A stretch of DNA of 64,000 bases from a virus (Duplodnaviria > Heunggongvirae > Uroviricota > Caudoviricetes), in the IMG/VR virus record IMGVR_UViG_2778261139_000002, positions 22,595-86,594 of that record; one strand, 5' to 3'. Positions 11,876-40,969 of the stretch are shown here, piece after piece. The notes below the pieces were generated by a model. It did not search any database, had not been told where the DNA came from, and saw only the letters and a program-made list of their open reading frames with translations. The position numbers and the translations under genes were made by a program. Numbering within the stretch: the stretch's first letter is position 1; each line of letters begins with the position of its first letter.

Positions 11876-12466
11876 TTACCTGCTCATAGAAGCCAGTCCT
11901 TCCGGCACTACTGGCGATGGCTGTTTAGCTTCTAAATCAGCAATTCTGTCAACCACGGCATCGACAGCATCTGAAAAACTGAAACAGTTACTCCACTCAG
12001 GCCTATCCCCGGTTGCTGCAAAGTACATATCAGCTAAAGCAGACTCAGCATGGTCACGCTCATTAATGAGTTGCTCTTCGCTTTTCTCCAGTTCTGCAAT
12101 GCGCTTACTTCCATCCGCGATTACACCCTCGTAATATTCACGCTGCTCGTTGAGTTTTGATTTTGCTGCTTCCAGCTCAACGCGCAGCTTCCCTACCGTT
12201 AGCGCAATATCCTCGTTCTCCTGGTCGCGTGATTTGATGTATTGCTGGTTTCTTTCCCGTTCATCCAGCAGTGCCAAGACGGTAGCCGGATTGGCTGCTG
12301 CTATGAATCGCTTATTGGCGCGATTATCTGTTCCTGAGCATGATGCTATGTAGTAATTGGCGTTCAGTCCGGCATTGGCAATAACCCCATAGTCATCAGT
12401 ACACCATTCGCCTGGTGTTGCATTTTCTGCCGCCAGCCGCAGTGCTTGATAGCTAACTCCGTTCAC
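11876..12466 (-). CDS. Ead/Ea22-like prophage protein, 196 aa
   Basis: N-terminal ATPGEW motif and central coiled coil typical of Ead/Ea22-like proteins. Confidence 0.55.
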   Translation of the reverse strand: MNGVSYQALRLAAENATPGEWCTDDYGVIANAGLNANYYIASCSGTDNRANKRFIAAANPATVLALLDERERNQQYIKSRDQENEDIALTVGKLRVELEAAKSKLNEQREYYEGVIADGSKRIAELEKSEEQLINERDHAESALADMYFAATGDRPEWSNCFSFSDAVDAVVDRIADLEAKQPSPVVPEGLASMSR

Positions 12467-12684
12467 TTCACACCTCTCTGTTTGTTGATAAGTTCAATAT
12501 CCTGCTGGCAACTTGCGCAAGCTCGGCATCCACGAACAGCCAGGCGTCGCCGCTCATCTATCGGATCGCCACACTCGCAACAATGAGTAGCAGATGGGGC
12601 ATTACTATCGGATTTGTATTTTTGCAGGGAGAGATTGCGCTGCAATTCTTCGATTTCAGCGGCATTGTCGACGATATCTGCCAT
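12463..12684 (-). CDS. TraR/DksA-family C4 zinc-finger protein, 73 aa
   Basis: CECGDPIDERRR...CRACASC four-cysteine motif at C terminus; size typical of phage TraR. Confidence 0.65.
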   Translation of the reverse strand: MADIVDNAAEIEELQRNLSLQKYKSDSNAPSATHCCECGDPIDERRRLAVRGCRACASCQQDIELINKQRGVK

Positions 12685-12731
12685 TTTCCTTTCCTTCAGG
12701 CATGAAAAAAGGAGCCGAAGCTCCTTTGGTA

Positions 12732-13361
12732 TCAGAATTCAAATTGTCTTGCCCGCAGGCTTTTCAGCATTGGCATGGCCCGCTGGATAACGGAACTTGA
12801 CATGTCGAGACGTGTTACCTCCCTCAGTAGCGCGTCTCTGTTCTTCGTCACCATGTAGATGGTCTCAAACGCAATGTCATACAGCTTGTTCGTGTATGAG
12901 GAGTTCAGCTCTTTCATAATGGGATACAGGTGTTTGCTGATGTCCTGGGCTTTTTCCATCCAGAGCTGCATGTAGCAAAGGAGGATGATTTCCTCGGCTG
13001 TGAATTGCGGCTGTGGTTCTGCTTGTACTGGCTGAATGTTGCGAAGTTTCTTTTCGCACTCGATGAAGTAGCGGCGTATCTGGCGGCCTTTTTCGTTACG
13101 TTCAACCATCGCAAGCTCTTTGGCTGTGTCGAGGGTGAGGTGGTAATCCTTGCGGCGGCGGCCTGGAGTTTTCGCCAAATTTGGCGAAAATAGAATGTAG
13201 TCTAAATTTTCTACGAATCCATACTCGTTTAGCCTGGCCCGTATCCAGTTAGAAAAATCTTTACCTACCTCTAAAAATCCATGCAAATCACGCGCGTTCA
13301 CCAGAAGCGTAGGTTCATTTGAGATTGTACCTTCAAACACAGGGATGAGTTGAGTGGTCAT
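12732..13361 (-). CDS. AntA/AntB-like antirepressor-domain protein, 209 aa
   Basis: N-terminal LIPVFEG...ARDLHGFLEV...FSNWI pattern recalled from the AntA N-terminal domain; last gene before element end. Confidence 0.5.
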   Translation of the reverse strand: MTTQLIPVFEGTISNEPTLLVNARDLHGFLEVGKDFSNWIRARLNEYGFVENLDYILFSPNLAKTPGRRRKDYHLTLDTAKELAMVERNEKGRQIRRYFIECEKKLRNIQPVQAEPQPQFTAEEIILLCYMQLWMEKAQDISKHLYPIMKELNSSYTNKLYDIAFETIYMVTKNRDALLREVTRLDMSSSVIQRAMPMLKSLRARQFEF

Positions 13362-13698
13362 GATGACCTCCTTATTTGTTTAGTTTATAACCGCCAGTTA
13401 GTAGCTGGCGGTCGGGTGTCAACTGAGCCAAATAAGAAGCTCTGGGCATATTCCCCTTGCGGGTGTTGTATTACGCCTCTCCACCCGACCTTTGTACGGA
13501 TGTAACTATGCCAAATTGCAGGCATAAAAAAGCCGCAAAGCTATCGGGTGCGGAGACCGCTTATTTGTTCAGTGCGATCAGTATGCGATAGCTCTGACGG
13601 ATTTGTCAAATCGTGCAGTAACATCCTTTTCTTCCTTGCCATTTCTCAATGATGACAAAGGGTGGATTCGGATTGGTATTGGGACAAAAGTGAGACAC

Positions 13699-13732
13699 AC
13701 AAAGCTTTGCATCGGCTTACAAAGCTTTGCAT
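13699..13732. repeat. Two 14-bp direct repeats (ACAAAGCTTTGCAT) 20 bp apart, each containing the 10-bp palindrome CAAAGCTTTG
   Basis: Exact copies at 13699-13712 and 13719-13732, about 80 bp inside the inferred element end. Confidence 0.7.
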
Positions 13733-13776
13733 GTTTTTCAATGTTGGGACGTGTGAGCGCAGAAATGACGGGCTAT

Positions 13777-13890
13777 CTAATTGATTTTAAACGATACGTA
13801 ACCAACTTTAAAATCTTTGCACGCCAGTTCGCAGGTTTTACAGCCAGTACAGCGGCTGGAATCGATAAAAAATCCATATTGTGTGGTCAT
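13777..13890 (-). pseudogene. ynfG: ynfG 5-prime fragment (4Fe-4S subunit gene truncated by the mobile element)
   Basis: Translation MTTQYGFFIDSSRCTGCKTCELACKD matches the recalled YnfG/DmsB-type N terminus, then diverges and stops after 37 codons; start 10 bp after ynfF stop. Confidence 0.7.
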
Positions 13891-22964: not shown

Positions 22965-23984
22965 ATGAAAAGCATATTAATTGAAAAACCGAATCAACTG
23001 GCGATTGTCGAACGTGAAATACCCACCCCGTCAGCGGGTGAAGTACGAGTAAAAGTGAAACTTGCCGGAATTTGTGGTTCTGATAGCCATATTTATCGTG
23101 GGCATAATCCTTTTGCGAAATATCCGCGCGTCATTGGACATGAATTCTTTGGCGTCATTGATGCGGTGGGTGACGGCGTGGAAAGCGCCAGAGTCGGTGA
23201 ACGTGTTGCTGTCGATCCGGTGGTCAGCTGTGGGCATTGCTATCCGTGCTCTATAGGTAAACCGAACGTTTGTACGACACTTGCTGTATTAGGTGTGCAC
23301 GCTGACGGTGGTTTCAGTGAATATGCCGTGGTTCCGGCAAAAAATGCGTGGAAAATTCCTGAAGCAGTGGCCGATCAATATGCGGTGATGATCGAACCTT
23401 TTACCATTGCGGCTAACGTAACCGGACATGGTCAACCGACTGAAAATGATACCGTTCTGGTTTATGGTGCCGGTCCAATCGGCCTGACGATCGTTCAGGT
23501 ATTAAAAGGCGTCTATAACGTTAAAAATGTGATTGTTGCCGATCGCATTGATGAACGACTGGAAAAAGCGAAAGAGAGCGGGGCAGACAGGGCGATTAAT
23601 AACAGCCAGACACCGCTTGGCGAGATTTTCGCTGAAAAAGGCATCAAGCCGACATTAATTATCGATGCGGCTTGTCATCCTTCTATCCTGAAAGAGGCCG
23701 TAACGCTGGCTTCTCCAGCGGCACGTATTGTATTGATGGGCTTCTCCAGTGAACCGTCTGAAGTGATTCAGCAAGGAATTACCGGAAAAGAACTCTCTAT
23801 TTTCTCTTCACGCTTAAATGCAAATAAATTTCCGGTTGTTATCGACTGGTTAAGTAAAGGGTTAATTAAACCAGAAAAATTAATTACCCATACGTTTGAT
23901 TTCCAGCATGTTGCTGATGCCATTAGTTTATTTGAACAGGATCAAAAACATTGCTGCAAAGTCTTACTCACTTTTTCTGAATAA
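22965..23984 (+). CDS. rspB: Starvation-sensing protein RspB (zinc-dependent alcohol dehydrogenase family)
   Basis: 339 aa from MKSILIEKPN; GHEFFG and CGHCYPC zinc-ADH motifs. Confidence 0.9.
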   Translation: MKSILIEKPNQLAIVEREIPTPSAGEVRVKVKLAGICGSDSHIYRGHNPFAKYPRVIGHEFFGVIDAVGDGVESARVGERVAVDPVVSCGHCYPCSIGKPNVCTTLAVLGVHADGGFSEYAVVPAKNAWKIPEAVADQYAVMIEPFTIAANVTGHGQPTENDTVLVYGAGPIGLTIVQVLKGVYNVKNVIVADRIDERLEKAKESGADRAINNSQTPLGEIFAEKGIKPTLIIDAACHPSILKEAVTLASPAARIVLMGFSSEPSEVIQQGITGKELSIFSSRLNANKFPVVIDWLSKGLIKPEKLITHTFDFQHVADAISLFEQDQKHCCKVLLTFSE

Positions 23985-24041
23985 TACCAATAACGGCGAG
24001 TAAGTAGTACGCATCTTACCTCTTTTTTAGAGATAACCATT

Positions 24042-24137
24042 ATGACAATAGAAAAACATGAAAGAAGCACTAAGGATTTGGTGAAAGCAGCAGTATCGGG
24101 ATGGCTGGGCACTGCGCTTGAATTTATGGATTTCAAG
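24042..24137 (+). pseudogene. ydfJ: ydfJ 5-prime fragment (MFS transporter gene interrupted by the prophage)
   Basis: MTIEKHERSTKDLVKAAVSGWLGTALEFMDF then divergence and stop; ProP-like WFDF-type motif cut at the junction. Confidence 0.6.
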
Positions 24138-24171
24138 AGTCATACGTGTCAACTATTTGATAAATATTAAA

Positions 24172-25467
24172 TTAATTTTTCATTGCTTCGTTATGGGGCA
24201 TGGTTGGGGCAAACTCGCTTAACTGTGTATTTAACAAAGCTACCTGTGCATTATTGTTTTCAGACATCCATTTTCCGTATACCTGAAATACCATTTGCGC
24301 ATCTGCATGGCCCATCTGGTTTGCTATAAATGCCGGGTTAGCACCAGCTGTCAGCGACCAGCAGGCATAAGTATGTCTCGACTGATATGATTTTCGATGG
24401 CGGAGTCCGGCACGTTTTATCGCTGCGTCCCACATCTGCCTTATTGAGTCAACGGTAAAATGGTCACCATAATTTTTTACTCTCGCTGACACTTCAGGTT
24501 GAAAAACAAAGGTGCATTTATGTTTTTCTGTTCTGCCATACTCTCTGAGGTGAACATCAATGATATGCTCTTTGCTCAGTCTCGTTAATGTCATCTGACT
24601 CCGGAGAGCGTCGATTGCTGGCTTAATAAGATGAATGACCCGATTGGTTCCCGCCTGTGTTTTTGGTACCGTGAAACGGTCTTTTGCTAAATTTCTCCTG
24701 ATCATCATTGTTCCATTTTTCAGATCTATGTCCTCCCATCCAAGTGCACACAGCTCACCAGGGCGAACGCCAGTATAAACAGAAACACACCATAAATTTT
24801 TGGCTTGCTGATTTCTGCACGCATCGATAAGACGGATGAATTCCTCCCGCGAAAGAGGATCCGGAATGGTTCTTGATTCCTTTAATGGCGAGATCCCCTT
24901 AAACGGGTTATCTGCCAGGTAACCGTTATCAACACCAAACTGGAACACGGCGTTAAGATTTGTCATGTAATTATTTACAGTTACAGCCGATCTCCCTGGT
25001 TGTGTAACAATATAGTTACTTTTGGGGATCTGGTATCCAGTCAGTAGCTCTTTACGAACCTCCAGTAATTTTTCTTTATTAATCGATGAGGCAAGATTTT
25101 TTTCACCGATTATGCTCAGGATATTTTTGATGACGGCACGGTATGTGTTGAGTGATGTTTTTGCGACTTCAGTTTCTTTCAGTGCCAGAAATTTTTCAGC
25201 CAGTTCTTTTATGGTTAAATCTTGTCGGGTCTCACCAAATTTTTCCAGATTGCGTGAGGAGGGAAACTGTTTTGCATAGTCGAAAACACCAGTTTTTATT
25301 GCGTAACAAACAGAGGCGCGTAGCTCACCTGCAACGCGCCTGTTTTTTGCTGTGTCAGGAACCCCCAGGTTTTCCCTGACTCTTACGCCTTTATAAACAA
25401 ACCAGATACGTAATTTCCCTCCATGGTTTTCCACGCCTGTCGGATATTTCATTTCAACTTCTCTCAT
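24172..25467 (-). CDS. Tyrosine integrase (lambda Int family)
   Basis: 431-aa ORF; N-terminal arm-binding-type segment (KYPTGVENHGGKLRIWFVYKG) and C-terminal catalytic domain; true start may be the Met of MKYPTG. Confidence 0.85.
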   Translation of the reverse strand: MREVEMKYPTGVENHGGKLRIWFVYKGVRVRENLGVPDTAKNRRVAGELRASVCYAIKTGVFDYAKQFPSSRNLEKFGETRQDLTIKELAEKFLALKETEVAKTSLNTYRAVIKNILSIIGEKNLASSINKEKLLEVRKELLTGYQIPKSNYIVTQPGRSAVTVNNYMTNLNAVFQFGVDNGYLADNPFKGISPLKESRTIPDPLSREEFIRLIDACRNQQAKNLWCVSVYTGVRPGELCALGWEDIDLKNGTMMIRRNLAKDRFTVPKTQAGTNRVIHLIKPAIDALRSQMTLTRLSKEHIIDVHLREYGRTEKHKCTFVFQPEVSARVKNYGDHFTVDSIRQMWDAAIKRAGLRHRKSYQSRHTYACWSLTAGANPAFIANQMGHADAQMVFQVYGKWMSENNNAQVALLNTQLSEFAPTMPHNEAMKN

Positions 25468-25486
25468 TAGTTAGTGTGGCTTTTAG

Positions 25487-25738
25487 TCAAGTAAGATGAC
25501 GTCTTGGTCTTGCTGATGCCTGGCGCTCAATCCAGCGATCAATTTCTTCCAGGTTGTAAAAGCATGGACTGTTATCCCATGGCATACCGTCATGAGCGAC
25601 ATGCTTATATTCCCTTCCTTCCATAAACGATTTTTCCCGGGCCTTTTTTAACGTACCTTTTTTTATTCCTTTCAGCGCAATTAACTGCTCTTCGGATACC
25701 CATTTGCCGGGAGAGACAATCATGATTACTTCGCTCAT
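25487..25738 (-). CDS. Excisionase-like protein
   Basis: 83 aa, directly upstream of int on the same strand; KWVSEE...GTLKKAREKSFMEGREYKHV pattern recalled from excisionase-like proteins. Confidence 0.65.
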   Translation of the reverse strand: MSEVIMIVSPGKWVSEEQLIALKGIKKGTLKKAREKSFMEGREYKHVAHDGMPWDNSPCFYNLEEIDRWIERQASARPRRHLT

Positions 25739-25810
25739 CGATTTCTTTATCTCTTACATCAGACGAGCGCCGGTTGCAGAATACCAGTCACAACCGGCGA
25801 CAGTTGAACA

Positions 25811-28282
25811 TTAAGAATCAGCCTGACTCGGGATCAGTTTTTGCCAGATAACTGAAACGTATTTTGCCTGGTAACGGGCGTCATCAAGTGCATTATGGCG
25901 CTCACCTTCGAATGGAATAGCCGTTCTGGCATCGAAGTCTATGGCTTTCCCCAGCTCAACGATTGTGCGTACATCGCGATCGTTGTAGTAACGCCACGGG
26001 CAGGGGATCCCCTGCCGTTCGTATGAACGGCGCAAAATCGTGTTGTCGAAGTTGGCTCCATTTCCCCAAACCTGAACAAAAAATTCACCGGAGTTTTCGT
26101 CGATAAATTCCCGCAATTGTAACAGTGCATCATCTAACGGGATTTCATCGGTCATAATGGCAGATTGCGCTTCGCGTGATTGCTTAAGCCACCATTTAAT
26201 GGTGTCCCGATCAATGACTCCGCCAGCAGTTTCCAGATCGATAGTCTTACTAAATTCCGGTCCCATATCTCCGGTTTGCGGATCGAAAAATATTGCACCT
26301 ATTGAGATGATCGGGGCATCAGGATTTTTTCCCATGGTTTCAAGGTCGATCATTAGATGGTCACACGTCCTGCTGGTGGATGTGATTTCGTGATGACCGT
26401 TCACCTTAATTGGGTGATCTGCCGTCTCGCCAGTTTCATTATCGCTATTGTGATGCTGATTGCCGCCAGTGTTCTCCTTGTGTGGATGTTCAGCGCCTTC
26501 CATTTCCTCCGGATCATCTTCCTGAACTTCAACCTGATACTCTTCATCGAATGTTTCTTGGTATGTTGCGTCGCCCATCACCGCGCCACAATCAGGGCAG
26601 TTGCCGCCGCCGGTCTGACCGCAGGCGGTGCAGGCCTTTTCCACTTCCTGGTGCGCCACTGGTTCAGGCTGTTTCGTTTCTGGCTCGTTTTGTAACGCAT
26701 TTGGACTGTTTTGTTCCGCTTTTTGGTAGTTCCGTTCCGATTCATGCTGGTTCTGGTTCACAGAATCGCGGGTCTGGATCCCCTTAACCCATTTCGGATC
26801 ATTCGGGTCACTAATCCCTTCAACAAATTCACCACGTGATGCAGCAAGCAACTTATCGGCGTCAGGCTGGCTGATATTGGCTGCCTGCATAATTTTGTTT
26901 ACTTCGTCAGCGGTAACTTTTATCGGCTCTGGTTGTTCTGAATCTTCAGCGGTATCTACATTTTGCGGTAAGCCCGTGTATGTGCCATTTTTTCGGGCAA
27001 AATATTCTTCTTTTGTGATTTCAGTGGCGCCAGCAGCCACTGCCTTATCCAGACCAGAAAGTTTGTTTGCGCGACCGTATTTTTCTCCGTCCTTATCTGC
27101 GAAGAGGAAATAGAACGGCCCCTCACGCTCTACAGATGGTTCAGCTTCCGGCGCGGTTTCATTTTTTGGGATATCAGATACCTCAGTTTCCACTGCATCA
27201 GTTTGTGTTTCTGATGACTGGAGAACATCAACAGTGCCCAGGTCTGTTTCTTCATTCTCAAACACGCCCTTTGTCGTCAGGTATTCGCAGATATATTTGT
27301 TCAGTGCTACGGGATCTTTGTGAATGTCGATCGGACGCTCACGGACAAGGCCAAAAATAGTTTGGCGGTCGTAGCGAAGGGCATCAGGCTGTTTGCGCAT
27401 TGATGCCGAGATACGCTTCCAGTCTTCGCGGTCGTTGTCGATAACTTCTTTTTTTGCCCAGCGATGGATGCTGCCGTCAATGTTTCCGGCATCCACATCA
27501 CCAGGCCAGAGAGCGTAGGCCAGTTCGTCATCCAGTGTTTTCCATGTCTGCTTGTATTCGCGATGAATGGCAGCAATGACCGGGCTGATTTTTCCTGTTG
27601 AATTTTCAGTGTACTGTTGATTGGCTCTGGCGCGGGCGAGATCAACAACAGACGTGTATTTTCCGGTTTCCTTGCGTTCACCTTCGCGACGTTTTTTCCA
27701 GATGCGCATCTCTGCCTGAATTTCGGGCCATTTAGCACCAGGAATACATTTATGCTTAACCCACCCAATGGCGTGCAACTTAAGCTCCGGATACATGGCG
27801 TTAACTTCTGGCATTTTCATCAACGCTTCAACGATATGTCCGTCGAATGTTGCCATGTCTTCCTGCAACAATTCCTGTGCGCTAATAACCATATCAACGG
27901 TGATGTTTTCACATGTGTCGAACTTAACCATGACAGCGTTCTGTACTTCAGGGGCCAGCTTGTCAAAAGTGACGTTCATCGGATCGGATTCAGTCTCAAC
28001 CGGGACAAAAGAAGCAGACTCCTCATCCCAGCGGTTTTCCTGCATATATTCAGCATCCCATGAATCGAGGGCAGGGCGGGGTATGCCAGGTTTATCCTCG
28101 CAGACAATAAATTTATAAGCGCAGTCCTGAGCAGCCGGATAATGTTCCAGGAACTGCCAGTGAAATTTTGCTCGAGCACGGCGTTCGTCGCCAGCTTCAA
28201 TGGCTGTGGCTACAGCCACAGCGCCTTCTTCCCTTGTTGCCAGTTCGTCAGGAATAGCGGCGCAAATAAAGACTTTACTCAT
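25811..28282 (-). CDS. RecE-like exonuclease, 823 aa, with central zinc ribbon and C-terminal DEDDh-type 3-prime-5-prime exonuclease domain
   Basis: C-terminal DLETMG...ISIGAIFF...HNALDDARYQ motifs; CTACGQTGGGNCPDCG zinc ribbon; position corresponds to the ydfE pseudogene of Qin. Confidence 0.7.
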   Translation of the reverse strand: MSKVFICAAIPDELATREEGAVAVATAIEAGDERRARAKFHWQFLEHYPAAQDCAYKFIVCEDKPGIPRPALDSWDAEYMQENRWDEESASFVPVETESDPMNVTFDKLAPEVQNAVMVKFDTCENITVDMVISAQELLQEDMATFDGHIVEALMKMPEVNAMYPELKLHAIGWVKHKCIPGAKWPEIQAEMRIWKKRREGERKETGKYTSVVDLARARANQQYTENSTGKISPVIAAIHREYKQTWKTLDDELAYALWPGDVDAGNIDGSIHRWAKKEVIDNDREDWKRISASMRKQPDALRYDRQTIFGLVRERPIDIHKDPVALNKYICEYLTTKGVFENEETDLGTVDVLQSSETQTDAVETEVSDIPKNETAPEAEPSVEREGPFYFLFADKDGEKYGRANKLSGLDKAVAAGATEITKEEYFARKNGTYTGLPQNVDTAEDSEQPEPIKVTADEVNKIMQAANISQPDADKLLAASRGEFVEGISDPNDPKWVKGIQTRDSVNQNQHESERNYQKAEQNSPNALQNEPETKQPEPVAHQEVEKACTACGQTGGGNCPDCGAVMGDATYQETFDEEYQVEVQEDDPEEMEGAEHPHKENTGGNQHHNSDNETGETADHPIKVNGHHEITSTSRTCDHLMIDLETMGKNPDAPIISIGAIFFDPQTGDMGPEFSKTIDLETAGGVIDRDTIKWWLKQSREAQSAIMTDEIPLDDALLQLREFIDENSGEFFVQVWGNGANFDNTILRRSYERQGIPCPWRYYNDRDVRTIVELGKAIDFDARTAIPFEGERHNALDDARYQAKYVSVIWQKLIPSQADS

Positions 28283-28375
28283 TTTGTTTTAACCTCATGA
28301 CAGATTTAAGGATGAACAAATCCCTGCCATTGCTGGCATATAAGAATGAAACCGGATATTTATTACGGAACTGTT

Positions 28376-28567
28376 TTAAAGACCTGCCGGGATTTCGATA
28401 TTATCCTGGTGAATAACTTTATCGACCGGGTAACAGTTACCGGGAATTTTCTGTTCGGTTGCTGCAGTCATACACTCCTGCATTGTCCTGTGAACACTGA
28501 CTGCAATATCAACTGGCACTCCGGAAACAAGAAAAACTGTCAGAACAAGCGCAAATGCTGAATTCAT
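28376..28567 (-). CDS. ydfD: Small membrane/lysis protein YdfD
   Basis: 63 aa from MNSAFALVLTVFLVSGVPVD; hydrophobic N terminus; immediately downstream of dicB. Confidence 0.7.
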   Translation of the reverse strand: MNSAFALVLTVFLVSGVPVDIAVSVHRTMQECMTAATEQKIPGNCYPVDKVIHQDNIEIPAGL

Positions 28568-28752
28568 TGTGCACATCCTTTTGGCATCAGACGTAAACGA
28601 GCCAGCATTGAAACAATGCATATTTTATTTAATAGCTCCCGTTCTTGTTTTCTCTTGTTAATGGCATCTTCAGTAAATACAGGGTTACTGATAGTGACAC
28701 CAATTTCAAAACAACCTTCAGACGTATTAACGTTTGGTAATAACGTTTTCAT
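28564..28752 (-). CDS. dicB: Cell-division inhibitor DicB
   Basis: 62 aa MKTLLPNVNTSEGCFEIGVTISNPVFTEDAINKRKQERELLNKICIVSMLARLRLMPKGCAQ, recognised as DicB. Confidence 0.8.
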   Translation of the reverse strand: MKTLLPNVNTSEGCFEIGVTISNPVFTEDAINKRKQERELLNKICIVSMLARLRLMPKGCAQ

Positions 28753-28921
28753 TATCGCGTCCTCAACAATGAATTTTGTGATGCAGTGCCTGGTGCCTCC
28801 AGGTGACGTTAACCAGTTAACAATTAACGTCGGATACAGAGAATCCACCCATAACACTGTTTTTGGTTTTAACTGTTCCGCGTGCGCTTAGCCGTATTCA
28901 CCGCATCACAAAATTCACTTT

Positions 28922-28979
28922 AAAAAGGGCGGCAGAGCAGTCACGGAGTAAAACTGATACCGCCAAACGTCACCAGAAA
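28922..28979 (-). ncRNA. dicF: DicF small RNA (ftsZ-targeting sRNA processed from the dicB operon transcript)
   Basis: Minus-strand sequence TTTCTGGTGACGTTTGGCGGTATCAGTTTTACTCCGTGACTGCTCTGCCGCCCTTTTT matches recalled DicF with 3-prime hairpin and U tract. Confidence 0.75.
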
Positions 28980-29238
28980 ATTGATAACAGAGGGCGTTGC
29001 AGCGGGGTTGTCACTTAAGCGTATGGTCAACCTGACAACCCGGTGTCCTCAACGGGGAAGGAATAACCCCGCCATACTTACCGCCGCGCCATTTTGCGGG
29101 TTGCCACAACCGGAAGCGCACGGTCGAATTAAATTTAACGACACCGTACAGTGAGACGAACTTCGCCGTGCGCTTTCGTGTTGTGTGCCTGCTTTTAACC
29201 ACGTCAGGCGAGGTGGTATCCTTAAAATCACCACAGTT

Positions 29239-29814
29239 TTAAGGATTCATTAAGCAATGTCGCAACCACCAATAAATCCGCTTAAGAACATGAAAATTGA
29301 TTACTGGTATAAAGCTCTTACAGTTGTTGGCGCTGCGTTGTTTGTCTTTAATGGAACGTCTTTTTTTGACAGATATCCCGTTGTTCCATTGGGTTTTTTG
29401 TCCTCCGGCATCTTTTTTATTGGTTTGGGGGAGTGGATTAATCACCCTCTCATAGTGAGATTTATTGGTCCTGGAGTTTGGACTCGTGGATATAATCGTT
29501 CTTCGTGCGCACTCGGTATCATCTTCGACATACTTGGTTGTTTCCTGATTGTTACAGGAGTCGTCAAGTTCTTCTGATGTAAAACCGCAAATGGGGCACG
29601 TAACGGGAATTTTGAAAAGCGTTTCTCCGGGTTCCAGAACAAAATTTTCTGCGGTCTGATTTTGCTTCTCATATTTGTGCTCCGCGTCATTGTGAGAGCA
29701 CATTCTTATTCTGAGTGCCTGTTTAAACTCACTGAAGCTGAGAGCTTCTTCGCCTTCGGCAAGGCCTTCGAAGTATTCTTCGTAAGCCTTTTCCATGATT
29801 GTGTCGAAATCCAT
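29239..29814 (-). CDS. YdfB/YdfC-like early protein with Cys/His-rich region; only the N-terminal ~80 codons are convincing
   Basis: Start ATG 29814 coupled to ydfA stop (TGAtATG); beyond ~29577 the frame is antisense to the membrane ORF and K/N/Q-rich, so the true 3-prime end is uncertain. Confidence 0.4.
   Translation of the reverse strand: MDFDTIMEKAYEEYFEGLAEGEEALSFSEFKQALRIRMCSHNDAEHKYEKQNQTAENFVLEPGETLFKIPVTCPICGFTSEELDDSCNNQETTKYVEDDTECARRTIISTSPNSRTNKSHYERVINPLPQTNKKDAGGQKTQWNNGISVKKRRSIKDKQRSANNCKSFIPVINFHVLKRIYWWLRHCLMNP
29257..29577 (+). CDS. Predicted small membrane protein, 106 aa, three hydrophobic segments (moron candidate, antisense to the dicB operon)
   Basis: AAGGA 9 nt upstream of ATG; segments ALTVVGAALFVF, VVPLGFLSSGIFFIGLG, ALGIIFDILGCFLIVTGVV; overlaps the 3-prime part of a minus-strand ORF. 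Confidence 0.4.
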   Translation: MSQPPINPLKNMKIDYWYKALTVVGAALFVFNGTSFFDRYPVVPLGFLSSGIFFIGLGEWINHPLIVRFIGPGVWTRGYNRSSCALGIIFDILGCFLIVTGVVKFF

Positions 29815-29815
29815 A

Positions 29816-29971
29816 TCACTCACCTGAGTTTCTTTCCAGCCAGCGACGGGCACCATTTTCGGTTTTAAACGTTTTGCTTTTGGTATACGTCATCGCGGTG
29901 AACGTGCCGTCCTGGTTGGGGAACACGCCACATACCAGAGATTCGCTGTTGCCAAGATCGATAGTATCCAT
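29816..29971 (-). CDS. ydfA: Small protein YdfA
   Basis: 51 aa MDTIDLGNSESLVCGVFPNQDGTFTAMTYTKSKTFKTENGARRWLERNSGE; first gene after dicA on the same strand. Confidence 0.7.
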   Translation of the reverse strand: MDTIDLGNSESLVCGVFPNQDGTFTAMTYTKSKTFKTENGARRWLERNSGE

Positions 29972-30163
29972 GCTGACCTCATTTCCCCTTAACGCCGGGG
30001 TAGCGGAACTGTTTGCTGAGAACACCGTGCGGTGTCTTGATGGAGGTAATTTAGTTTTCTCATTATTTTTCGTCAAGGTTTTTTGATGAGAAAACTCAAG
30101 TGTTGGCGCAAGATAAAGCCAATACATTGAAATGTAAGGCTTTAAAATTTTGTGAAGGGATGA

Positions 30164-30571
30164 TTATTGATGCTTGTTGCGTTTGCGAGCCTCTAATAGC
30201 TCGGTGAACAGGCGATTAAAATTCTCAACGCGGGCGCGGAGTTCGCTGAGTTGTGCTTGTTGCTCTGATTTAGGAAGTGCGCGATACAAACGCAGCATCT
30301 CTAACTCATCTTCCGATAAGTCTAAGGCACTATCGAGTGAAACAGGGGGAGCTGGTGTTTTGTCCTCGTCGCCAAACAGTATCCAAGTTGGTGAACATTG
30401 CAATACCTCGGCGAGGCGATGCAAATTTTGCCCGCGCGGGGCTGTATGGTCACTTTCCCATAATGAAATTGATGAGCCAGATACGCCAGCAGCTTTGCTT
30501 AAACCGTTTTGACTTAAGCCTACCTGCTTACGTCTTTCTCTAATGCGTTGACCTAAAGTTTTCTCGTTCAT
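30164..30571 (-). CDS. dicA: HTH (XRE-family) repressor DicA-like, 135 aa
   Basis: HTH segment LSQNGLSKAAGVSGSSISLWE and C-terminal QCSPTWILFGDEDK...RARVENFNRLFTELLEARKR closely match recalled DicA; start at internal Met. Confidence 0.85.
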   Translation of the reverse strand: MNEKTLGQRIRERRKQVGLSQNGLSKAAGVSGSSISLWESDHTAPRGQNLHRLAEVLQCSPTWILFGDEDKTPAPPVSLDSALDLSEDELEMLRLYRALPKSEQQAQLSELRARVENFNRLFTELLEARKRNKHQ

Positions 30572-30648
30572 ATTTAGATATCTTAATAACCCTTGACTTG
30601 AGATTCCTTGAGTGATTAGCATTGAGAAAACTCAATATTGGAGGTGCG
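30572..30648. promoter_or_regulatory. Divergent dicA/dicC promoter-operator region
   Basis: 77-bp intergenic region with TTGACT -35-like hexamer and palindrome TTGAGaaaaCTCAA (30612-30625). Confidence 0.5.
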
Positions 30649-30876
30649 ATGTTTAAATCAGACGTAATTAATTTTTACGGTACGAAAGCCAAAGTAGCGA
30701 AAGCTGCTGGCGTTGACCCATCTGCTGTTTCTCAATGGCAAGAGCTGGTTCCTGAAGGTCGCGCGATGCGTCTACAGGAGGCATCTGGCGGCGAGCTTCT
30801 GTATGATCCCAAGGTTTATGACGAATATCGTAAGACGAAGCGGGCGGGGCGGTTGAACAATGAAAATCACTCCTGA
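30649..30876 (+). CDS. dicC: Cro-like regulator DicC
   Basis: 75 aa; C-terminal LVPEGRAMRLQEASGGELLYDPKVYDEYRKTKRAGRLNNENHS matches recalled DicC. Confidence 0.75.
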   Translation: MFKSDVINFYGTKAKVAKAAGVDPSAVSQWQELVPEGRAMRLQEASGGELLYDPKVYDEYRKTKRAGRLNNENHS

Positions 30877-31381
30877 ACAGGCTCGTGAGGCTCTGGATGC
30901 CTGGATATGTCGACCAGGAATGACACAGGAGCAGGCGACGATATTAATCACTGAAGCATTCTGGGCTTTGAAAGAGCGCCCGAACATCGATGTTCAGCGT
31001 GTCACAGATGAAGGTGGCGCGGTTGATCAGCGAGCACTTGGCGTTAATCGAGTGAAGATATTCGAACGCTGGAAGGCTATCGACACCAGGGATAAGCGTG
31101 AAAAGTTCACGGCGCTAGTGCCTGCAATTATGGAGGCTATTCGGATTAATGATTTCAGGTTGTATCGTGAAATTAGTGACGGAAAAAGCATCACGTACAT
31201 GATCGCCGGGTTAAACAAAGAATATGGCGATGTGGTGGAGTCCGGACTGCTTTTTGCTGATCCTGCCGTAGTGGATCGTGAAACTGACGAACTTATAGAA
31301 AAAGCAATTGCTTTCAAACTTGCGTATCGACAGCAATACCAACAAAAAGCTGGATGGAATTATGAGCCTTCTTTTTGCTGA
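30860..31381 (+). CDS. Hypothetical early protein, 173 aa
   Basis: ORF following dicC with short overlap; no family recognised. Confidence 0.5.
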   Translation: MKITPEQAREALDAWICRPGMTQEQATILITEAFWALKERPNIDVQRVTDEGGAVDQRALGVNRVKIFERWKAIDTRDKREKFTALVPAIMEAIRINDFRLYREISDGKSITYMIAGLNKEYGDVVESGLLFADPAVVDRETDELIEKAIAFKLAYRQQYQQKAGWNYEPSFC

Positions 31382-32327
31382 ACGCCCACTGGTTATAAAC
31401 ACACAGCTTGCGATGAAGATTGGCTTAAATGAAGCCATTGTGTTGCAGCAGTTGCATTACTGGTTGAGAGATACCAATTCCGGCATGGAATGTGATGGTG
31501 TTCGCTGGATTTACAACACAACGGAACAATGGCTGGAACAGTTCCCATTCTGGTCAGAGTCAACGTTAAAGCGCGCGTTTGCAAGTCTGAAAACGCTGGG
31601 GCTTTTGCGTTGTGAAAAGCTCAATAAATCAAAGCGCGATATGACCAATTTCTACACGATCAACTACGGGAGCGAGCTTTTAGATGGTGGCAAATTGAGC
31701 GAATCCATCGGTTTAAAATGCGCCGCTCCATCAGGTCAAAATGACACGATGGAAGAGGTCAAAATGAAACGCTCCATTGGTTCAAAACGACCCAATGTCA
31801 TCGGGTCAAAATGGCCTGATGATCTTACAGAGAATACAACAGAGATTACTACAGAGAATAAAAACACTTTTCGTCCGGAAGCTTCGCAACCGGACCCGCA
31901 GACCGCTGAACAGGATTTTTTAACCCGGAACCCCGACGCGGTTGTGTTTAGTGCGAAAAAACGCCAGTGGGGTAGCAGGGAGGATTTGGCGTGTGCGCAG
32001 TGGATTTGGGGGCGGATCGTGAACCTTTACGAACAGGCTGCCAGCGACGATGGAGAGATCATGCGACCAAAAGAGCCTAACTGGACAGCCTGGGCCAATG
32101 ACGTGCGCACAATGCGGATGCTGGATGGCAGAAGCCACAGACAAATTTGCGAAATGTTTGGTCGGGTACAGCGAGATCAATTCTGGGTAAAAAACATCAT
32201 GAGCCCGTCAAAACTCCGCGAAAAATGGGACGAACTGGTCATCCGCCTGGGACGTTCACCTGTAAAGCGTTGTGTGAATCATATTTCTGAACCGGATACA
32301 GAAATTCCGCCTGGTTTCAGGGGATAA
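31362..32327 (+). CDS. Phage replication initiation protein (replisome-organiser-type N-terminal domain)
   Basis: N-terminal LNEAIVLQQLHYWL... wHTH-like segment typical of phage replication initiators; position after cro-like gene; start taken at internal Met. Confidence 0.55.
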   Translation: MSLLFAERPLVINTQLAMKIGLNEAIVLQQLHYWLRDTNSGMECDGVRWIYNTTEQWLEQFPFWSESTLKRAFASLKTLGLLRCEKLNKSKRDMTNFYTINYGSELLDGGKLSESIGLKCAAPSGQNDTMEEVKMKRSIGSKRPNVIGSKWPDDLTENTTEITTENKNTFRPEASQPDPQTAEQDFLTRNPDAVVFSAKKRQWGSREDLACAQWIWGRIVNLYEQAASDDGEIMRPKEPNWTAWANDVRTMRMLDGRSHRQICEMFGRVQRDQFWVKNIMSPSKLREKWDELVIRLGRSPVKRCVNHISEPDTEIPPGFRG

Positions 32328-32367
32328 GTGTTGATTTTAGGGTATAAAGTAATGTTCAGGAGGACTT

Positions 32368-32787
32368 GTGGCAAAAGTTTTTACACAAGAAGAGCGGGAA
32401 AAAATTAAAGGGCAGGTGGTGGAACTCGTACGCCAGAGTGGGCGCGAGACGTTACGACAACTGGAAGCTAAAACTGGGGCAACAAGATATCTGATGAGCG
32501 TTCTGGCCAGAGAGCTGGTTGCCAGTGGCGATGTATACAGCTCTGGTTACGGGTTATTCCCGTCTGAACAGGCGCGTAAGGACTGGCAAAACGCCCGCAA
32601 AAAACTCTCGAGGGCAAAGGTGAAGAAACCTGCTGTGGTTGATCCGGACCTTATCTGGTCATTACCTGACGGAGAAATACGTCGCTACGACAGTCGTCTA
32701 AACATAATCTGTCGCGAGTGCCGGAAGGCAAGGAGAAGCAGGCTATTGTTAACATCAAGCTGTAATGTCCCCTTTGAACCATTCTAA
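32368..32787 (+). CDS. Hypothetical replication-region protein; C-terminal codons probably altered by the IS insertion
   Basis: 139-codon ORF whose last ~6 codons lie beyond the putative insertion point at 32768. Confidence 0.45.
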   Translation: MAKVFTQEEREKIKGQVVELVRQSGRETLRQLEAKTGATRYLMSVLARELVASGDVYSSGYGLFPSEQARKDWQNARKKLSRAKVKKPAVVDPDLIWSLPDGEIRRYDSRLNIICRECRKARRSRLLLTSSCNVPFEPF

Positions 32788-34497
32788 AATGTCCCCAGAC
32801 AATTCTCTGGGGGATTTTTCATGATCAAAGAGACTGTTACGATGAGTCATAAGGAACTCCACCGACTTCAGATTATTCAGGAGTCAATTAATCGACATAT
32901 TACTCAGGAACAAGCTGCGGCACGCATTGGCATTTCTATTCGGCAGGTTAAACGTCTGGTGCAACGGTATAGAAATGAAGGGCCTTCTGGTCTGGTTTCC
33001 CACCGACGTGGAAAGCGTCCTAATAATTCCTTTTCTACTGAATTCAGAGCAACAGTAATTTCACTCCTCAAAGGCCGTTACGCTGATTTTGGACCTACGT
33101 TTGCGTGCGAAAAATTGCGCGAGATACACGGTTTATCTTTATCCGTTGAAACTCTCAGAAAGTGGATGATAGAAGAGGGGTTATGGCGTGAACGCCGTCG
33201 TAAAATTGCCCGTATATATCAACGCCGCATGCGACGACCATCTTACGGTGAACTGATCCAGATTGATGGCTCACCTCATGACTGGTTTGAAAATCGAGGC
33301 CCCAGATGTACACTGATCGTTTTCATTGATGATGCCACCAGTGCGTTGATGGCGTTGCGTTTTGTGCCTGCTGAAACAACCCGGGCTTACATGGAAACCC
33401 TCCGGGGTTACCTTAATGATCATGGCGTACCGCTCGCTCTCTACTCTGATAGACACAGTATATTCAGGGTAAATAACCCAGAGCGGGAAGGTGAGCTGAC
33501 CCAGTTCACTCGTGCGATAAAGACACTGGGCATCGAGCCAATCCATGCCAACAGCCCGCAGGCAAAAGGGCGGGTAGAGCGCGCCAATCAGACACTACAG
33601 GACAGGCTGGTCAAAGAAATGCGGCTTCAGAATATCAGTGATATTGAAACAGCAAATGCATGGTTGCCGACCTTTATTGAAGCCTATAACAACCGGTTCT
33701 CTACGTCGCCTCGTACTACTGATAATGCTCATCTTGATGTGCACCATTCTGAAGAGGAACTGGGTTATATCTTCAGCCTACAGGCGAAGCGCGTTCTGTC
33801 TAAAAATCTCACTTTCCAGTACAAAAGCAGTGCGTTTCAGGTACGCAGTGAGGGCCGGGGATATCGACTTAGGCATTCGGTTGTTACTGTATGTGAGAAC
33901 TTTGACGGTGAAATTAACGTTCTGTATGACGGGAAAGCGCTGGGCTGGGAAAAGTATGTTGATGGCCCGGAGCCTATACCACTGGATGATGAAAAGAGTG
34001 TCCATGAACGAGTGGATAATGCCCGTATTGATTTACGCTCAAAATACTATGTTAAATCTAAAGCTGACCATCCCTGGCTTACGCGCCGAACGCAAAGTCA
34101 TCAGCAAGTTAAGCCCCCGAAGTTACCTAAAAAGAAGCCTGATCCCGATAAAATAGATTGAAACCAAGATCGATTCGGTTGAGTGCATATCCATTCATAG
34201 GGTAGATTCTTAAGTCGCGTTTCTGGTGTTCATTTTCGGGTGGTTTGTTACTTGTTTTACCGGGGATATGCCAGAAACGCGCTGAGTCAGTCTGGGCGGT
34301 GCGCGTAATGAGGCGTTATGGTAAATAGCCTATGCTAATGTCCGCTAAGAGCAAGAAGCGGAAGTTGGCAGTTTTGTGGACTGTCCCCACAAAAGTGACT
34401 ACAGAAATAGTTGCAATTCATAATTGATCATGGGTTGTCAGTTAAACTCGTGGCGATTTAAATAGACTAATTGGGAGTGCGTCCATTACTTATATCT
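32769..34497. mobile_element. Putative insertion sequence (~1.7 kb) carrying a single DDE transposase gene; ends approximate
   Basis: Transposase ORF flanked by 8-bp direct repeat TGTAATGT (32761-32768 and 34498-34505); terminal inverted repeats not identified by eye. Confidence 0.4.
32821..34161 (+). CDS. DDE-type transposase/integrase (rve-like core with N-terminal HTH), 446 aa; IS family not assigned
   Basis: N-terminal HTH (QEQAAARIGISIRQVKRLVQRY), central D...D...E-type core (IQIDGSPHDWF..., LYSDRHSIF..., ANSPQAKGRVERANQTLQDRL). Confidence 0.75.
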   Translation: MIKETVTMSHKELHRLQIIQESINRHITQEQAAARIGISIRQVKRLVQRYRNEGPSGLVSHRRGKRPNNSFSTEFRATVISLLKGRYADFGPTFACEKLREIHGLSLSVETLRKWMIEEGLWRERRRKIARIYQRRMRRPSYGELIQIDGSPHDWFENRGPRCTLIVFIDDATSALMALRFVPAETTRAYMETLRGYLNDHGVPLALYSDRHSIFRVNNPEREGELTQFTRAIKTLGIEPIHANSPQAKGRVERANQTLQDRLVKEMRLQNISDIETANAWLPTFIEAYNNRFSTSPRTTDNAHLDVHHSEEELGYIFSLQAKRVLSKNLTFQYKSSAFQVRSEGRGYRLRHSVVTVCENFDGEINVLYDGKALGWEKYVDGPEPIPLDDEKSVHERVDNARIDLRSKYYVKSKADHPWLTRRTQSHQQVKPPKLPKKKPDPDKID

Positions 34498-34597
34498 TGT
34501 AATGTTAACTATCAGAAATGATACAAAGATAATATGTCTTTAAAGAAAAGGCTGATGGCGAAAAGTGGCCCGATGAGGGCCACAATACGGCTGTCAC

Positions 34598-34930
34598 TTA
34601 GACGTAAATATCAATGGTGCCAGCGGTATTTGTATCGTCTTTTTTCTCTTCTTTTTTATCAGGCTGAACTGTCGCGTCTTTATTCTTTTTCTCTGCCTGC
34701 TGCCTTAACAACTGCTCCAGTTGAGCCCTGAGGCTTTCAATTTGCTTCTGTACCAATGCAGCCATTTCTTTTTTCTGCTGTGTCGTCATCCCCTCTTCCG
34801 ATGAGATTTTCCCAAGCTTTTCAGTCAGCACCTGAATTTGTCTTGTGATTTTGGCTATTTCTGATGTTCCTTCCGGGGCGGAGTTGTTTGAAATAACGGT
34901 TGAGGTATTTCCCTGAATTGTGACAGACAT
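34598..34930 (-). CDS. flxA: FlxA (flagellar-regulon protein)
   Basis: 110 aa MSVTIQGNTSTVISNNSAPEG...; sigma-28 promoter upstream. Confidence 0.85.
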   Translation of the reverse strand: MSVTIQGNTSTVISNNSAPEGTSEIAKITRQIQVLTEKLGKISSEEGMTTQQKKEMAALVQKQIESLRAQLEQLLRQQAEKKNKDATVQPDKKEEKKDDTNTAGTIDIYV

Positions 34931-34952
34931 AGATTTCTCCTTTTAAAAAAGC

Positions 34953-34979
34953 ACTATCGGCATGCACAAAAAAATCTTT
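34953..34979 (-). promoter_or_regulatory. Sigma-28 (FliA) promoter of flxA
   Basis: Minus strand reads TAAAGATT-N11-GCCGATAG, matching consensus TAAAGTTT-N11-GCCGATAA. Confidence 0.6.
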
Positions 34980-35132
34980 AATCGTATTTCTTGTGTCATT
35001 AATTGTTTGATGTTCAGATTGTTTTCCTCGCGGGCTGGCGCGCCTCAGAAAGTAAAGCTTGTTGACAGGGGTAAACGTTCGGCAATAATTTTCTGCCGCA
35101 TGCGGGTGTTGCATAAAACGTGCTACGTTCCT

Positions 35133-35438
35133 TTATCGACAGGTCAGGTCACCGCTCACCCGCCGACGAGAAAGCAACACTGACATGCTAAAGCAAAAAA
35201 TAGATGAATAAGTTGAGTTGTGCATATGTAGCCTGACCGTCACAAAGTATATGGTGTCTGTACCAGTAAGATGATGGCCGGACTCTTTAAAAGCGAGCTG
35301 ACCTGCACAATACAGGATGGACTTAGCAATGGCTGCTCCTGGCACAAAGCGGACAGTGATCACCGTTCTTACGACTACTTTCTGACTTCCTTCGTGACTT
35401 GCCCTAAGCATGTTGTAGTGCGATACTTGTAATGACAT
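35133..35438 (-). CDS. ydfV: Hypothetical prophage protein YdfV-like, 101 aa
   Basis: ORF at the position and size of ydfV between flxA and relB; sequence not independently recognised. Confidence 0.5.
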   Translation of the reverse strand: MSLQVSHYNMLRASHEGSQKVVVRTVITVRFVPGAAIAKSILYCAGQLAFKESGHHLTGTDTIYFVTVRLHMHNSTYSSIFCFSMSVLLSRRRVSGDLTCR

Positions 35439-35462
35439 TTGTAATTACAAGAGGTGTAAGAC

Positions 35463-35702
35463 ATGGGTAGCATTAACCTGCGTATTGACGATGAACTTAA
35501 AGCGCGTTCTTACGCCGCGCTTGAAAAAATGGGTGTAACTCCTTCTGAAGCGCTTCGTCTCATGCTCGAGTATATCGCTGACAATGAACGCTTGCCGTTC
35601 AAACAGACACTCCTGAGTGATGAAGATGCTGAACTTGTGGAGATAGTGAAAGAACGGCTTCGTAATCCTAAGCCAGTACGTGTGACGCTGGATGAACTCT
35701 GA
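35463..35702 (+). CDS. relB: Antitoxin RelB
   Basis: 79 aa MGSINLRIDDELKARSYAALEKMGVTPSEALRLMLEYIADNERLPF... recognised. Confidence 0.9.
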   Translation: MGSINLRIDDELKARSYAALEKMGVTPSEALRLMLEYIADNERLPFKQTLLSDEDAELVEIVKERLRNPKPVRVTLDEL

Positions 35703-35989
35703 TGGCGTATTTTCTGGATTTTGACGAGCGGGCACTAAAGGAATGGCGAAAGCTGGGCTCGACGGTACGTGAACAGTTGAAAAAGAAGCTGGTTGAAGTA
35801 CTTGAGTCACCCCGGATTGAAGCAAACAAGCTCCGTGGTATGCCTGATTGTTACAAGATTAAGCTCCGGTCTTCAGGCTATCGCCTTGTATACCAGGTTA
35901 TAGACGAGAAAGTTGTCGTTTTCGTGATTTCTGTTGGGAAAAGAGAACGCTCGGAAGTATATAGCGAGGCGGTCAAACGCATTCTCTGA
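35702..35989 (+). CDS. relE: mRNA interferase toxin RelE
   Basis: 95 aa MAYFLDFDERALKEWRKLGSTVREQLKKKL...; start overlaps relB stop (TGATG). Confidence 0.9.
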   Translation: MAYFLDFDERALKEWRKLGSTVREQLKKKLVEVLESPRIEANKLRGMPDCYKIKLRSSGYRLVYQVIDEKVVVFVISVGKRERSEVYSEAVKRIL

Positions 35990-36060
35990 ACCAAAGCATG
36001 ACATCTCTGTTTCGCACCGAAGGTGACACTTCTGCTTTGCGTTGACAGGAGAAGCAGGCT

Positions 36061-36216
36061 ATGAAGCAGCAAAAGGCGATGTTAATCGCCCTGATCGTCA
36101 TCTGTTTAACCGTCATAGTGACGGCACTGGTAACGAGGAAAGACCTCTGCGAGGTACGAATCCGAACCGGCCAGACGGAGGTCGCTGTCTTCACAGCTTA
36201 CGAACCTGAGGAGTAA
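36061..36216 (+). CDS. hokD: Hok-family membrane toxin HokD (RelF)
   Basis: 51-aa ORF below the ORF-track size cut-off: MKQQKAMLIALIVICLTVIVTALVTRKDLCEVRIRTGQTEVAVFTAYEPEE. Confidence 0.85.
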   Translation: MKQQKAMLIALIVICLTVIVTALVTRKDLCEVRIRTGQTEVAVFTAYEPEE

Positions 36217-36285
36217 GAGACCCGGCGGGGGAGAAATCCCTCGCCACCTCTGATGTGGCAGGCATCCTCAACGCACCCGCACTTA

Positions 36286-36310
36286 ACCCGCTTCGGCGGG
36301 TTTTTGTTTT
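36286..36310 (+). terminator. Rho-independent terminator after hokD
   Basis: CCCGC-ttcg-GCGGG followed by TTTTTGTTTTT. Confidence 0.6.
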
Positions 36311-36432
36311 TATTTTCAACGCGTTTGAAGTTCTGGACGGTGCCGGAATAGAATCAAAAATACTTAAGTAGCGCGCAGGGATAAGAGGGATGGTCCCTTA
36401 AAGGGGAGAGCTAATTATCCGGAAGGATTCTG

Positions 36433-37029: not shown

Positions 37030-37030
37030 C

Positions 37031-40965: not shown

Positions 40966-40969
40966 TCCA

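Follow-up and report, generated by a model that had tools for sequence, protein, structure and literature searches.

A probably functional Qin-type prophage in ydfJ of Escherichia coli SC475, a fuller mosaic relative of the cryptic K-12 prophage Qin

According to a published survey (PMC6379469), about half of Escherichia coli strains (48%) have a prophage at the Qin site, with sizes between 11 and 97 kb. The PPydfJ prophages of STEC occupy the same locus and have supplied a defined att sequence of 18-19 bp, together with an attP-containing PCR amplicon from PPydfJ-R of O26:H11 strain 11368 (Nakamura et al. 2021, PMC8112680). Qin-type phages have also been isolated already, with the same integrase and att site as the prophage described here. 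HannyBb (PP925841, 45.3 kb) and Tritos (OV696610, 46.4 kb) share its attP, int, xis, exonuclease and late-module type, and the repressor and cII-like protein of HannyBb are identical to those of our prophage, but both phages lack an insertion sequence (IS) and the flxA, ydfV, relBE block, have an intact DUF977 gene and carry another terS/cos module (42% amino-acid identity in TerS). PhiR42_1 (PV340562), regarded as a propagated phage on the strength of its GenBank record (complete phage genome, host ECOR13; a literature search found no paper on the origin of PhiR42_1 and ECOR13), has the same attP and int and the same ISEsa1-like IS followed by flxA, ydfV, relBE, hokD, rem, ydfU, Q, lysis genes and gnsB (98.4% identity); it differs from our prophage in having lambda-type head genes (Nu1, A, W, B, C, D, E), another immunity allele, an intact DUF977 gene and ~2 kb of extra sequence before the IS. 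Phage mEp460_ev081 (LR597641), which the literature describes as functional and as carrying homologues of dicB, dicF, dicAC and rem, was compared by BLAST only and matches over 56% of the early half at 95.5%, annotated integrase and exonuclease included. Phage mEp460 (NC_019716) is 98% identical from terS to J and in Lom, with every protein full length, whereas its integrase, immunity region and replication module are unrelated. The element is therefore of an ordinary, documented kind, ydfJ prophages and functional Qin-like phages having been published already.

The window, by which we mean the whole 64,000-nucleotide stretch of DNA analysed, is 100% identical to the minus strand of the chromosome of E. 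coli SC475 (NZ_LR778148.1), an isolate from water in the USA. We read it as containing most of a 45.8-kb lambdoid temperate phage that is inserted in ydfJ and probably still functional, and K-12 Qin as the remnant of such a phage; to this explanation as a whole we assign a probability of about 0.9. Downstream of rspA and rspB lies a 5' fragment of ydfJ (24042-24134, + strand; 31 codons) that retains its own promoter and terminates in the 16-bp attL core TGAATTTATGGATTTC (24119-24134), which with its flanks reads GCGCT-TGAATTTATGGATTTC-AAGAG. The frame continues into phage DNA, so that the open reading frame at 24042-24170 (+) encodes MTIEKHERSTKDLVKAAVSGWLGTALEFMDF followed by 11 phage-derived codons; the start of the ydfJ fragment is the ATG annotated in K-12 as 'ynfP'. 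The first-pass annotation had the ydfJ fragment ending at ~24135 and the 3' end of a tyrosine integrase gene following directly. The former proved exact to the base, and the latter is a 431-amino-acid frame on the minus strand (24172-25467) whose stop codon stands 37 bp beyond the core. The attR core, TGAATTATGGATTTC, lies outside the window at extended coordinates 69936-69950 (NZ_LR778148.1 ~3612991-3613005; with flanks, CCTG-TGAATTATGGATTTC-CAGTT), the right end of the prophage having been taken from that public record and not from the window. Measured from core to core the prophage is ~45.8 kb long, its right end being ~6 kb past the window end, and the RefSeq annotation of the same record gives the phage genes as a single block, with rspB and int at one end and ynfT at the other, and then a ydfJ flagged 'missing N-terminus'.

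Several observations show that the ydfJ junctions are exact. The attP of HannyBb and PhiR42_1 reads CCTG-TGAATTATGGATTTC-AAGAG (the attP junction predicted for an excised SC475 prophage would be CCTGTGAATTATGGATTTCAAGAG), the Tritos core differing by one base, and a B-O-P'/P-O-B' scheme fits attL, attR, the reconstructed attB and the attP sites of HannyBb, Tritos and PhiR42_1. Window positions 23835-24134 joined to the distal ydfJ of the same genome gave 600 nt that are 100% identical to an annotated uninterrupted ydfJ in many genomes (for example O104:H4), and the rejoined chromosomal arms hold an open frame for the 455-amino-acid YdfJ MFS transporter; failure of the two halves to rejoin in frame was tested for and not found. 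The insertion point is the core TGAATT(T)ATGGATTTC at the 5' end of ydfJ that defines Qin-type elements, and the attL and attR cores of K-12 Qin (NC_000913.3 1632277-1652745) in ydfJ are identical to those of SC475, in agreement with the placement at the Qin site first proposed for this prophage. No tRNA gene was detected in the window, either as an alternative integration target or as phage cargo, and a second att core or a second int gene was sought inside the element and not found. In the mechanism that we propose, integrase-mediated recombination between the phage attP (TGAATTATGGATTTC) and the chromosomal attB (TGAATTTATGGATTTC) would have inserted a single 45.8-kb lambdoid temperate phage genome within codons 26-31 of ydfJ, the site and the integrase family being those of the cryptic prophage Qin of K-12.

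A different element occupies the start of the window. Positions 1-13805 represent the end of another prophage or mobile element inserted in ynfG, as O157 strain 493/89, in which ynfG, ynfH and dmsD are intact, aligns to the window only from 13806, inside ynfG. This element encodes a 2,806-amino-acid polyvalent protein (1510-9930) with LPD38, LPD5, LPD1 and MuF_C domains, a DUF551 protein, an Ead/Ea22-like protein and an AntA/P22-type antirepressor, and an Rfam match to sRNA-Xcc1 (13402-13490, -; 69.1 bits, gathering score 53) lies just inside the junction with ynfG. It is presumably the first of the two prophages that the first-pass annotation had counted.

The left arm of the ydfJ prophage is intact where that of K-12 Qin is broken. 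The tyrosine integrase (Pfam Arm-DNA-bind_2 and Phage_integrase) is 99.1% identical to that of HannyBb over all 431 residues and represents in full length what K-12 has as the pseudogene intQ; it belongs to the IntQ family, with 98.8% nucleotide identity to the K-12 rspB-intQ segment as far as the IS2 breakpoint, and the K-12 match to the integrase ends at 25331, where IS2 starts. It is followed by an excisionase gene (25487-25738, -; RefSeq annotation) whose product is 100% identical to HannyBb Xis, and by the gene for an 823-amino-acid exonuclease (25811-28282, -) with a C-terminal Rv2179c-like 3'-5' exonuclease domain and 99.6% identity to HannyBb. The early-left dicBF operon (28376-28978, -; RefSeq annotation) comprises ydfD, dicB and the DicF sRNA (28927-28978, -; Rfam match, 76.7 bits). 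A 205-amino-acid frame of unassigned function (29239-29856, -; phrog_35040, no Pfam match) sits where K-12 and Tritos have ydfC and is 98.5% identical to its HannyBb counterpart.

The immunity region (30164-31381; RefSeq annotation with domain and PHROGs matches) encodes a DicA-type short HTH repressor (30164-30622, -), a Cro/DicC-like protein (30649-30876, +) and a cII-like/YdaT-family protein (30860-31381, +). The dicA/dicC type of immunity is accompanied by the annotated dicB and ydfD, by DicF and by a Rem protein that is 100% identical to that of K-12. The repressor is 100% identical to that of HannyBb; immunity specificity probably differs from that of K-12, because the repressor is a DicA homologue with only 57% identity to K-12 DicA. 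The next gene (31362-32327, +) encodes a 321-amino-acid replication initiator with an O-like N-terminal part and a DnaD-like loader C-terminal part (phrog_391, 'O-like', at 1e-92; 97.5% to HannyBb), which is absent from K-12 by deletion.

Beyond the IS described below, flxA, ydfV, relBE, hokD, rem (36433-36684), ydfU and the antiterminator gene Q (38094-38846) occupy 34598-38846 in the RefSeq annotation, with 98.5% identity to K-12 Qin and 98.4% to PhiR42_1. They are followed at 39620-44325 (RefSeq annotation) by cspB/cspF, the lysis cassette, cspI, ynfN, gnsB and a DUF1398 gene. The lysis cassette consists of essD (40750-40965), ydfR, rrrQ (41278-41811) and rzpQ (41808-42305), and compared with HannyBb its holin and lysozyme are 100% identical and its Rz protein 98.8%. 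Full-length Rfam matches to the cspA thermoregulator occur at cspB (39620-40012, +; 158.8 bits) and cspI (42522-42907, +; 112.8 bits). The late operon (45355-63698, +), recognized by Pfam domains and homology to mEp460, contains terS (DUF1441; 45380-45874, +), terL, adaptor, portal, a ClpP-capsid fusion, tail genes and J (60300-63698, +), and downstream of J, beyond the window, lie lom, stf, tfa, pin, ydfK and ynfT.

Aligned with K-12 Qin, the SC475 prophage is collinear and 96-99% identical at the nucleotide level wherever K-12 retains sequence, and the shared order takes in dicBF, ydfA/B, dicC, ydfW, flxA, relBE, hokD, rem, ydfU, Q, the csp genes, the lysis cassette, gnsB, tfaQ, pinQ and ydfK; the first-pass annotation had noticed this Qin gene order. 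The coordinate comparison with K-12 that it had suggested, carried out here, reveals three blocks missing from K-12. The first (25332-27515) comprises the 5' part of int, xis and the 3' two-thirds of the exonuclease gene. An IS2 remnant lies there in K-12, whose integrase is the same as that of SC475 but a pseudogene, and all that is left of the exonuclease gene is its 5' end, ydfE, which encodes an N-terminal remnant of the 823-amino-acid protein. The second (31140-33976) is a clean deletion of 2,837 bp, the flanking K-12 coordinates being adjacent, in which the replication initiator and DUF977 disappeared along with the greater part of the cII-like gene and of the IS transposase. K-12 ydfX corresponds to the first 93 codons of the cII-like/YdaT-family gene and K-12 ydfW, read in the transposase frame, to the final 49 transposase codons, and the one 2,837-bp deletion joined them (K-12 L002 20175-20637). 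The third (44389-66694) amounts to ~22 kb and includes the entire packaging, head and tail region. The alignment shows K-12 Qin as the remainder of such a phage after three losses: an IS2-associated one affecting int, xis and exo, a 2.8-kb deletion that fused what is left of the cII-like gene (ydfX) with the 3' end of the IS transposase (ydfW), and the replacement or loss of ~22 kb of late genes. The description of the element as a fuller relative of cryptic Qin consequently stands, with the refinement that, judged by its modules, it is a mosaic relative. A direct, intact ancestor of K-12 Qin was considered and rejected, as the terS type, immunity allele and ydfC region differ: K-12 has the Nu1-type nohA where the SC475 prophage has a DUF1441-type small terminase, and ydfC where SC475 has the 205-amino-acid frame.

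Isolated phages cover most segments of the prophage at 95-99%: HannyBb from 24119 to 32727 (99.0% nucleotide identity) and from 67808 to 69953 (98.7%), PhiR42_1 from 32718 to 44388 with the IS included (98.4%), Tritos from 39278 to 45193 (98.0%) and mEp460 from 45355 to 63316 (98.0%), while within 63317-67807 the identity to mEp460 is 94.5% over Lom and the initial ~840 nt of stf. The late region aligns with mEp460 as one block of 97.96% nucleotide identity in which the 19 proteins from TerS to Lom are full length with no frameshift. Single in-frame HSPs were obtained for 37 of 38 HannyBb proteins and for 19 of 20 mEp460 late proteins, the exception in mEp460 being Stf, which gave no protein match. 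Four HannyBb alignments are partial, each with an evident cause: TerL (first 19 residues missing) and TerS (42%) through another terS/terL-N module, Stf (first 122 residues) through a differing distal part, and DUF977 through the C-terminus clipped by the IS. Beyond the window, stf (64429-67344) is an open frame of 971 codons in the RefSeq annotation; its distal part has no full-length counterpart among the isolated phages, as only the first ~840 nt (mEp460) or the first 122 codons (HannyBb) match. A module of terS, the cos region and the N-terminus of terL (45268-45972) is swapped relative to HannyBb and Tritos (TerS 42% amino-acid identity) and is of the mEp460/phi458 type at 98-99%, the remaining terL being 87% identical to HannyBb; on these identities the swap is a textbook co-varying mosaic joint.

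Measured against the isolated phages, int, xis, the immunity genes, the O-like initiator, Q, the lysis genes and the packaging, head and tail genes are shown to be open and full length. The RefSeq annotation contains no late-gene pseudogenes, and late-gene frameshifts, which the first-pass annotation had named as the observation that would overturn its view, were looked for in the alignments to HannyBb and mEp460 without any being found. The genes it had listed as missing or decayed in K-12 were all found: the 823-amino-acid exonuclease, the replication gene, the lysis cassette, the terminase and the head and tail genes. With its essential genes full length, both att sites intact and a length of 45.8 kb (44.5-48.7 kb in related phages), the element has the properties of a complete genome, and it has probably kept the ability to excise, to replicate and to form virions.

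The part of the prophage that bears most directly on this prediction is an ISEsa1-like element of the IS1202 family, ~1,648 bp long (32719-34366, +), whose ends were set by the limits of homology to plasmid copies and by the PhiR42_1 junction. Its transposase gene (32821-34161, +) is intact and encodes 446 amino acids that match NCBIfam NF033594 (ISNCY/IS1202-group) with 464 bits (cutoff 250) over model positions 1-365 of 368; the Pfam domains HTH_28/HTH_32 and rve_3 fit the N-terminal HTH domains and the DDE/RNase H core of the single large transposase (about 440 amino acids) that typifies the IS1202 family and its ISEsa1 subgroup. ISEsa1 itself is listed with 1609 bp, a 439-amino-acid transposase and no target duplication (PMC10132070). 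Copies on Phytobacter and Enterobacter plasmids are 99.3% identical and span exactly 32719-34366, and the IS of PhiR42_1 begins at the same left limit within other left-flanking sequence. Elements of the ISEsa1 subgroup characteristically end in TGT...ACA, within imperfect inverted repeats, and make no target site duplication; in this IS neither repeat finding nor a local alignment of one end with the reverse-complemented other end turned up convincing terminal inverted repeats. RefSeq splits the open 446-codon transposase frame into a truncated or 'partial transposase' and a separate 'YdfW', the annotated ydfW being the last 49 transposase codons. On plasmids of Enterobacter, Salmonella and E. 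coli the IS is accompanied by the neighbouring phage flxA flank (32719-34700, 99.0-99.5% identity), and on other plasmids it stands alone (32719-34366); judging from these matches, a piece of a Qin-type phage has apparently moved with the IS on to plasmids.

The gene that the IS affects is that for a DUF977 protein, also named 'Ren-like' or LygF (32368-32787, +; Pfam DUF977, phrog_142). Homology to all isolated phages ends at 32727 within this gene and therefore IS-side sequence replaces its last ~20 codons; the gene and the IS end overlap by 8-9 bp (TGCCGGAAG), and no duplication was observed. In PhiR42_1 an intact DUF977 gene is followed by ~2 kb of accessory genes (a methyltransferase and small ORFs), absent from SC475, and then by the same IS, and GTGCC-G/A-AAG is common to the junction sequences of both. 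The SC475 arrangement may thus have arisen from a PhiR42_1-like one by a deletion that was guided by microhomology or lay next to the IS. Interruption of a replication gene by the IS was considered and rejected: the O-like gene (31362-32327) is intact, and the 3' end of DUF977 alone is affected. The earlier suggestion that an IS in the replication region might disable the prophage was therefore right in that the IS adjoins the replication gene, but that gene is uninterrupted. An essential role for DUF977 is unlikely, because PHROGs classes it as a 'Ren-like exclusion protein' in the moron category. The IS is probably not disabling and would be a tolerated passenger, since only DUF977 is clipped, PhiR42_1 also carries the IS and the population data given below point to spread. 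We caution that, relative to PhiR42_1 with its additional ~2 kb, an unrecognised essential function could conceivably have been lost, or that the IS could have a polar effect on Q expression.

The control of induction appears to differ from that of lambda. In the repressor, of 135-152 amino acids, HTH domains were found and no S24 peptidase domain, so it does not belong to the SOS-inducible lambda/P22 type, and the prophage part of the window contains no canonical LexA box (CTGT-N8-ACAG). SOS control of rem or another prophage gene through such a box was rejected on finding both window matches outside the prophage. In K-12, dicBp is reported to be unresponsive to mitomycin C and under the control of the antirepressor Rem (bioRxiv 10.1101/2023.04.14.536235), the K-12 Rem protein being reported as the antirepressor of DicA. 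Induction of the SC475 prophage would thus probably proceed via the Rem antirepressor and not via RecA cleavage of the repressor. A mitomycin C assay may be uninformative for this prophage, and a negative result would not demonstrate a defect, because the repressor is without an S24 domain, there is no canonical LexA box in the prophage part of the window and dicBp of K-12 is reportedly under Rem control.

The main competitor to a functional prophage is a structurally complete one in which an IS-associated rearrangement or a point mutation blocks replication or late expression. The truncated DUF977, the lost ~2 kb of nin-like region and the 1.65 kb of foreign DNA in the transcript path from PR to Q would be its substance, and the prophage would persist only through vertical descent and recombination. 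Many ydfJ-site prophages have been called defective in published surveys (PMC6379469), and the missing LexA box and cleavable repressor leave no obvious induction route. The rspB-ydfJ'-int-xis junction occurs in 2,644 of 5,426 complete genomes, which agrees with the published 48% prevalence (PMC6379469), and the ydfJ site is unoccupied in ~2,011; at least 80% of the early half of the prophage is present in 269 of the complete genomes, and strain 11368 covers 97% of that half at 98.2% identity. The exact DUF977::IS junction was found in 105 of the 5,426 genomes and in 0 of 50,697 phage records, and therefore no isolated phage has precisely this arrangement, a point in favour of a blocked prophage. 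Against it, the essential ORFs are all intact, and PhiR42_1, a propagated phage, has the same IS, flxA and ydfV in the path to Q.

A comparison of two different strains weighs further against a block. Between SC475 and O157 strain 493/89, the 10.3 kb of chromosome to the left of attL contains 139 differences (98.65% identity), whereas the prophage from attL to 40091, IS included, contains 8 differences in 16 kb (99.95% identity); the last difference in the flank is at 24059 and the next at 26636, so that identity switches at attL. We read this as independent, recent, site-specific acquisition of the IS-bearing form because the break in divergence coincides with the att core, as such acquisition predicts, and the contrast would otherwise be hard to account for. 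Late-region identity between the two strains is 98.07%, in keeping with the recombination that is common among lambdoid prophages. The comparison is moderate evidence for an IS-bearing phage that is infectious now or was so recently, although the low divergence from 493/89 could in principle stem from helper-assisted transfer instead of autonomous infectivity. Taking both sides together, we consider a blocked prophage unlikely, at perhaps the level of a serious minority view. A tandem composite of at least two prophages, for which one might cite the clusters of two to four elements at ydfJ documented in STEC, including some O157 and O26 strains (PMC8112680), and mosaic modules with different best-matching phages, is very improbable and was rejected, given that only one integrase, immunity region, Q gene, lysis cassette and late operon lie between attL and attR, that 45.8 kb compares with 44.5-48.7 kb in the compared phages and that the alignments hold no internal copy of the att core; nor were the tandem clusters, T3SS effector loci or IS-inactivated integrases that are frequent in STEC PPydfJ prophages seen here.

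A complete, probably functional temperate phage in ydfJ accordingly remains our preferred reading, and it is mainly of use for annotation, beyond which its significance is small. The SC475 prophage serves as a clean reference from which the losses of K-12 Qin can be read, and it explains K-12 ydfX, ydfW, ydfE and ynfP as remnants of deletion or insertion: three are gene 5' ends (ydfX of the cII-like gene, ydfE of the exonuclease gene and ynfP of ydfJ), and ydfW is the 3' end of an IS1202-family transposase gene. These origins, the mis-split transposase annotation and the evidence for the IS as a tolerated passenger are small additions to what was known. For studies of dicBF and Rem regulation, SC475-like strains provide the natural full-length context. 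A stronger proposition, on which we are evenly divided, sees in the SC475 element a Qin-type phage that is infectious at present, with an intact, possibly active ISEsa1-like IS as stable cargo and with plasmid spread of the IS-flxA segment. If this were true, the phage would be a vehicle that moves the IS together with dicBF, relBE, hokD and csp genes between E. coli lineages, and fragments of the IS-flxA junction would have moved on to plasmids of Enterobacter, Salmonella and E. coli.
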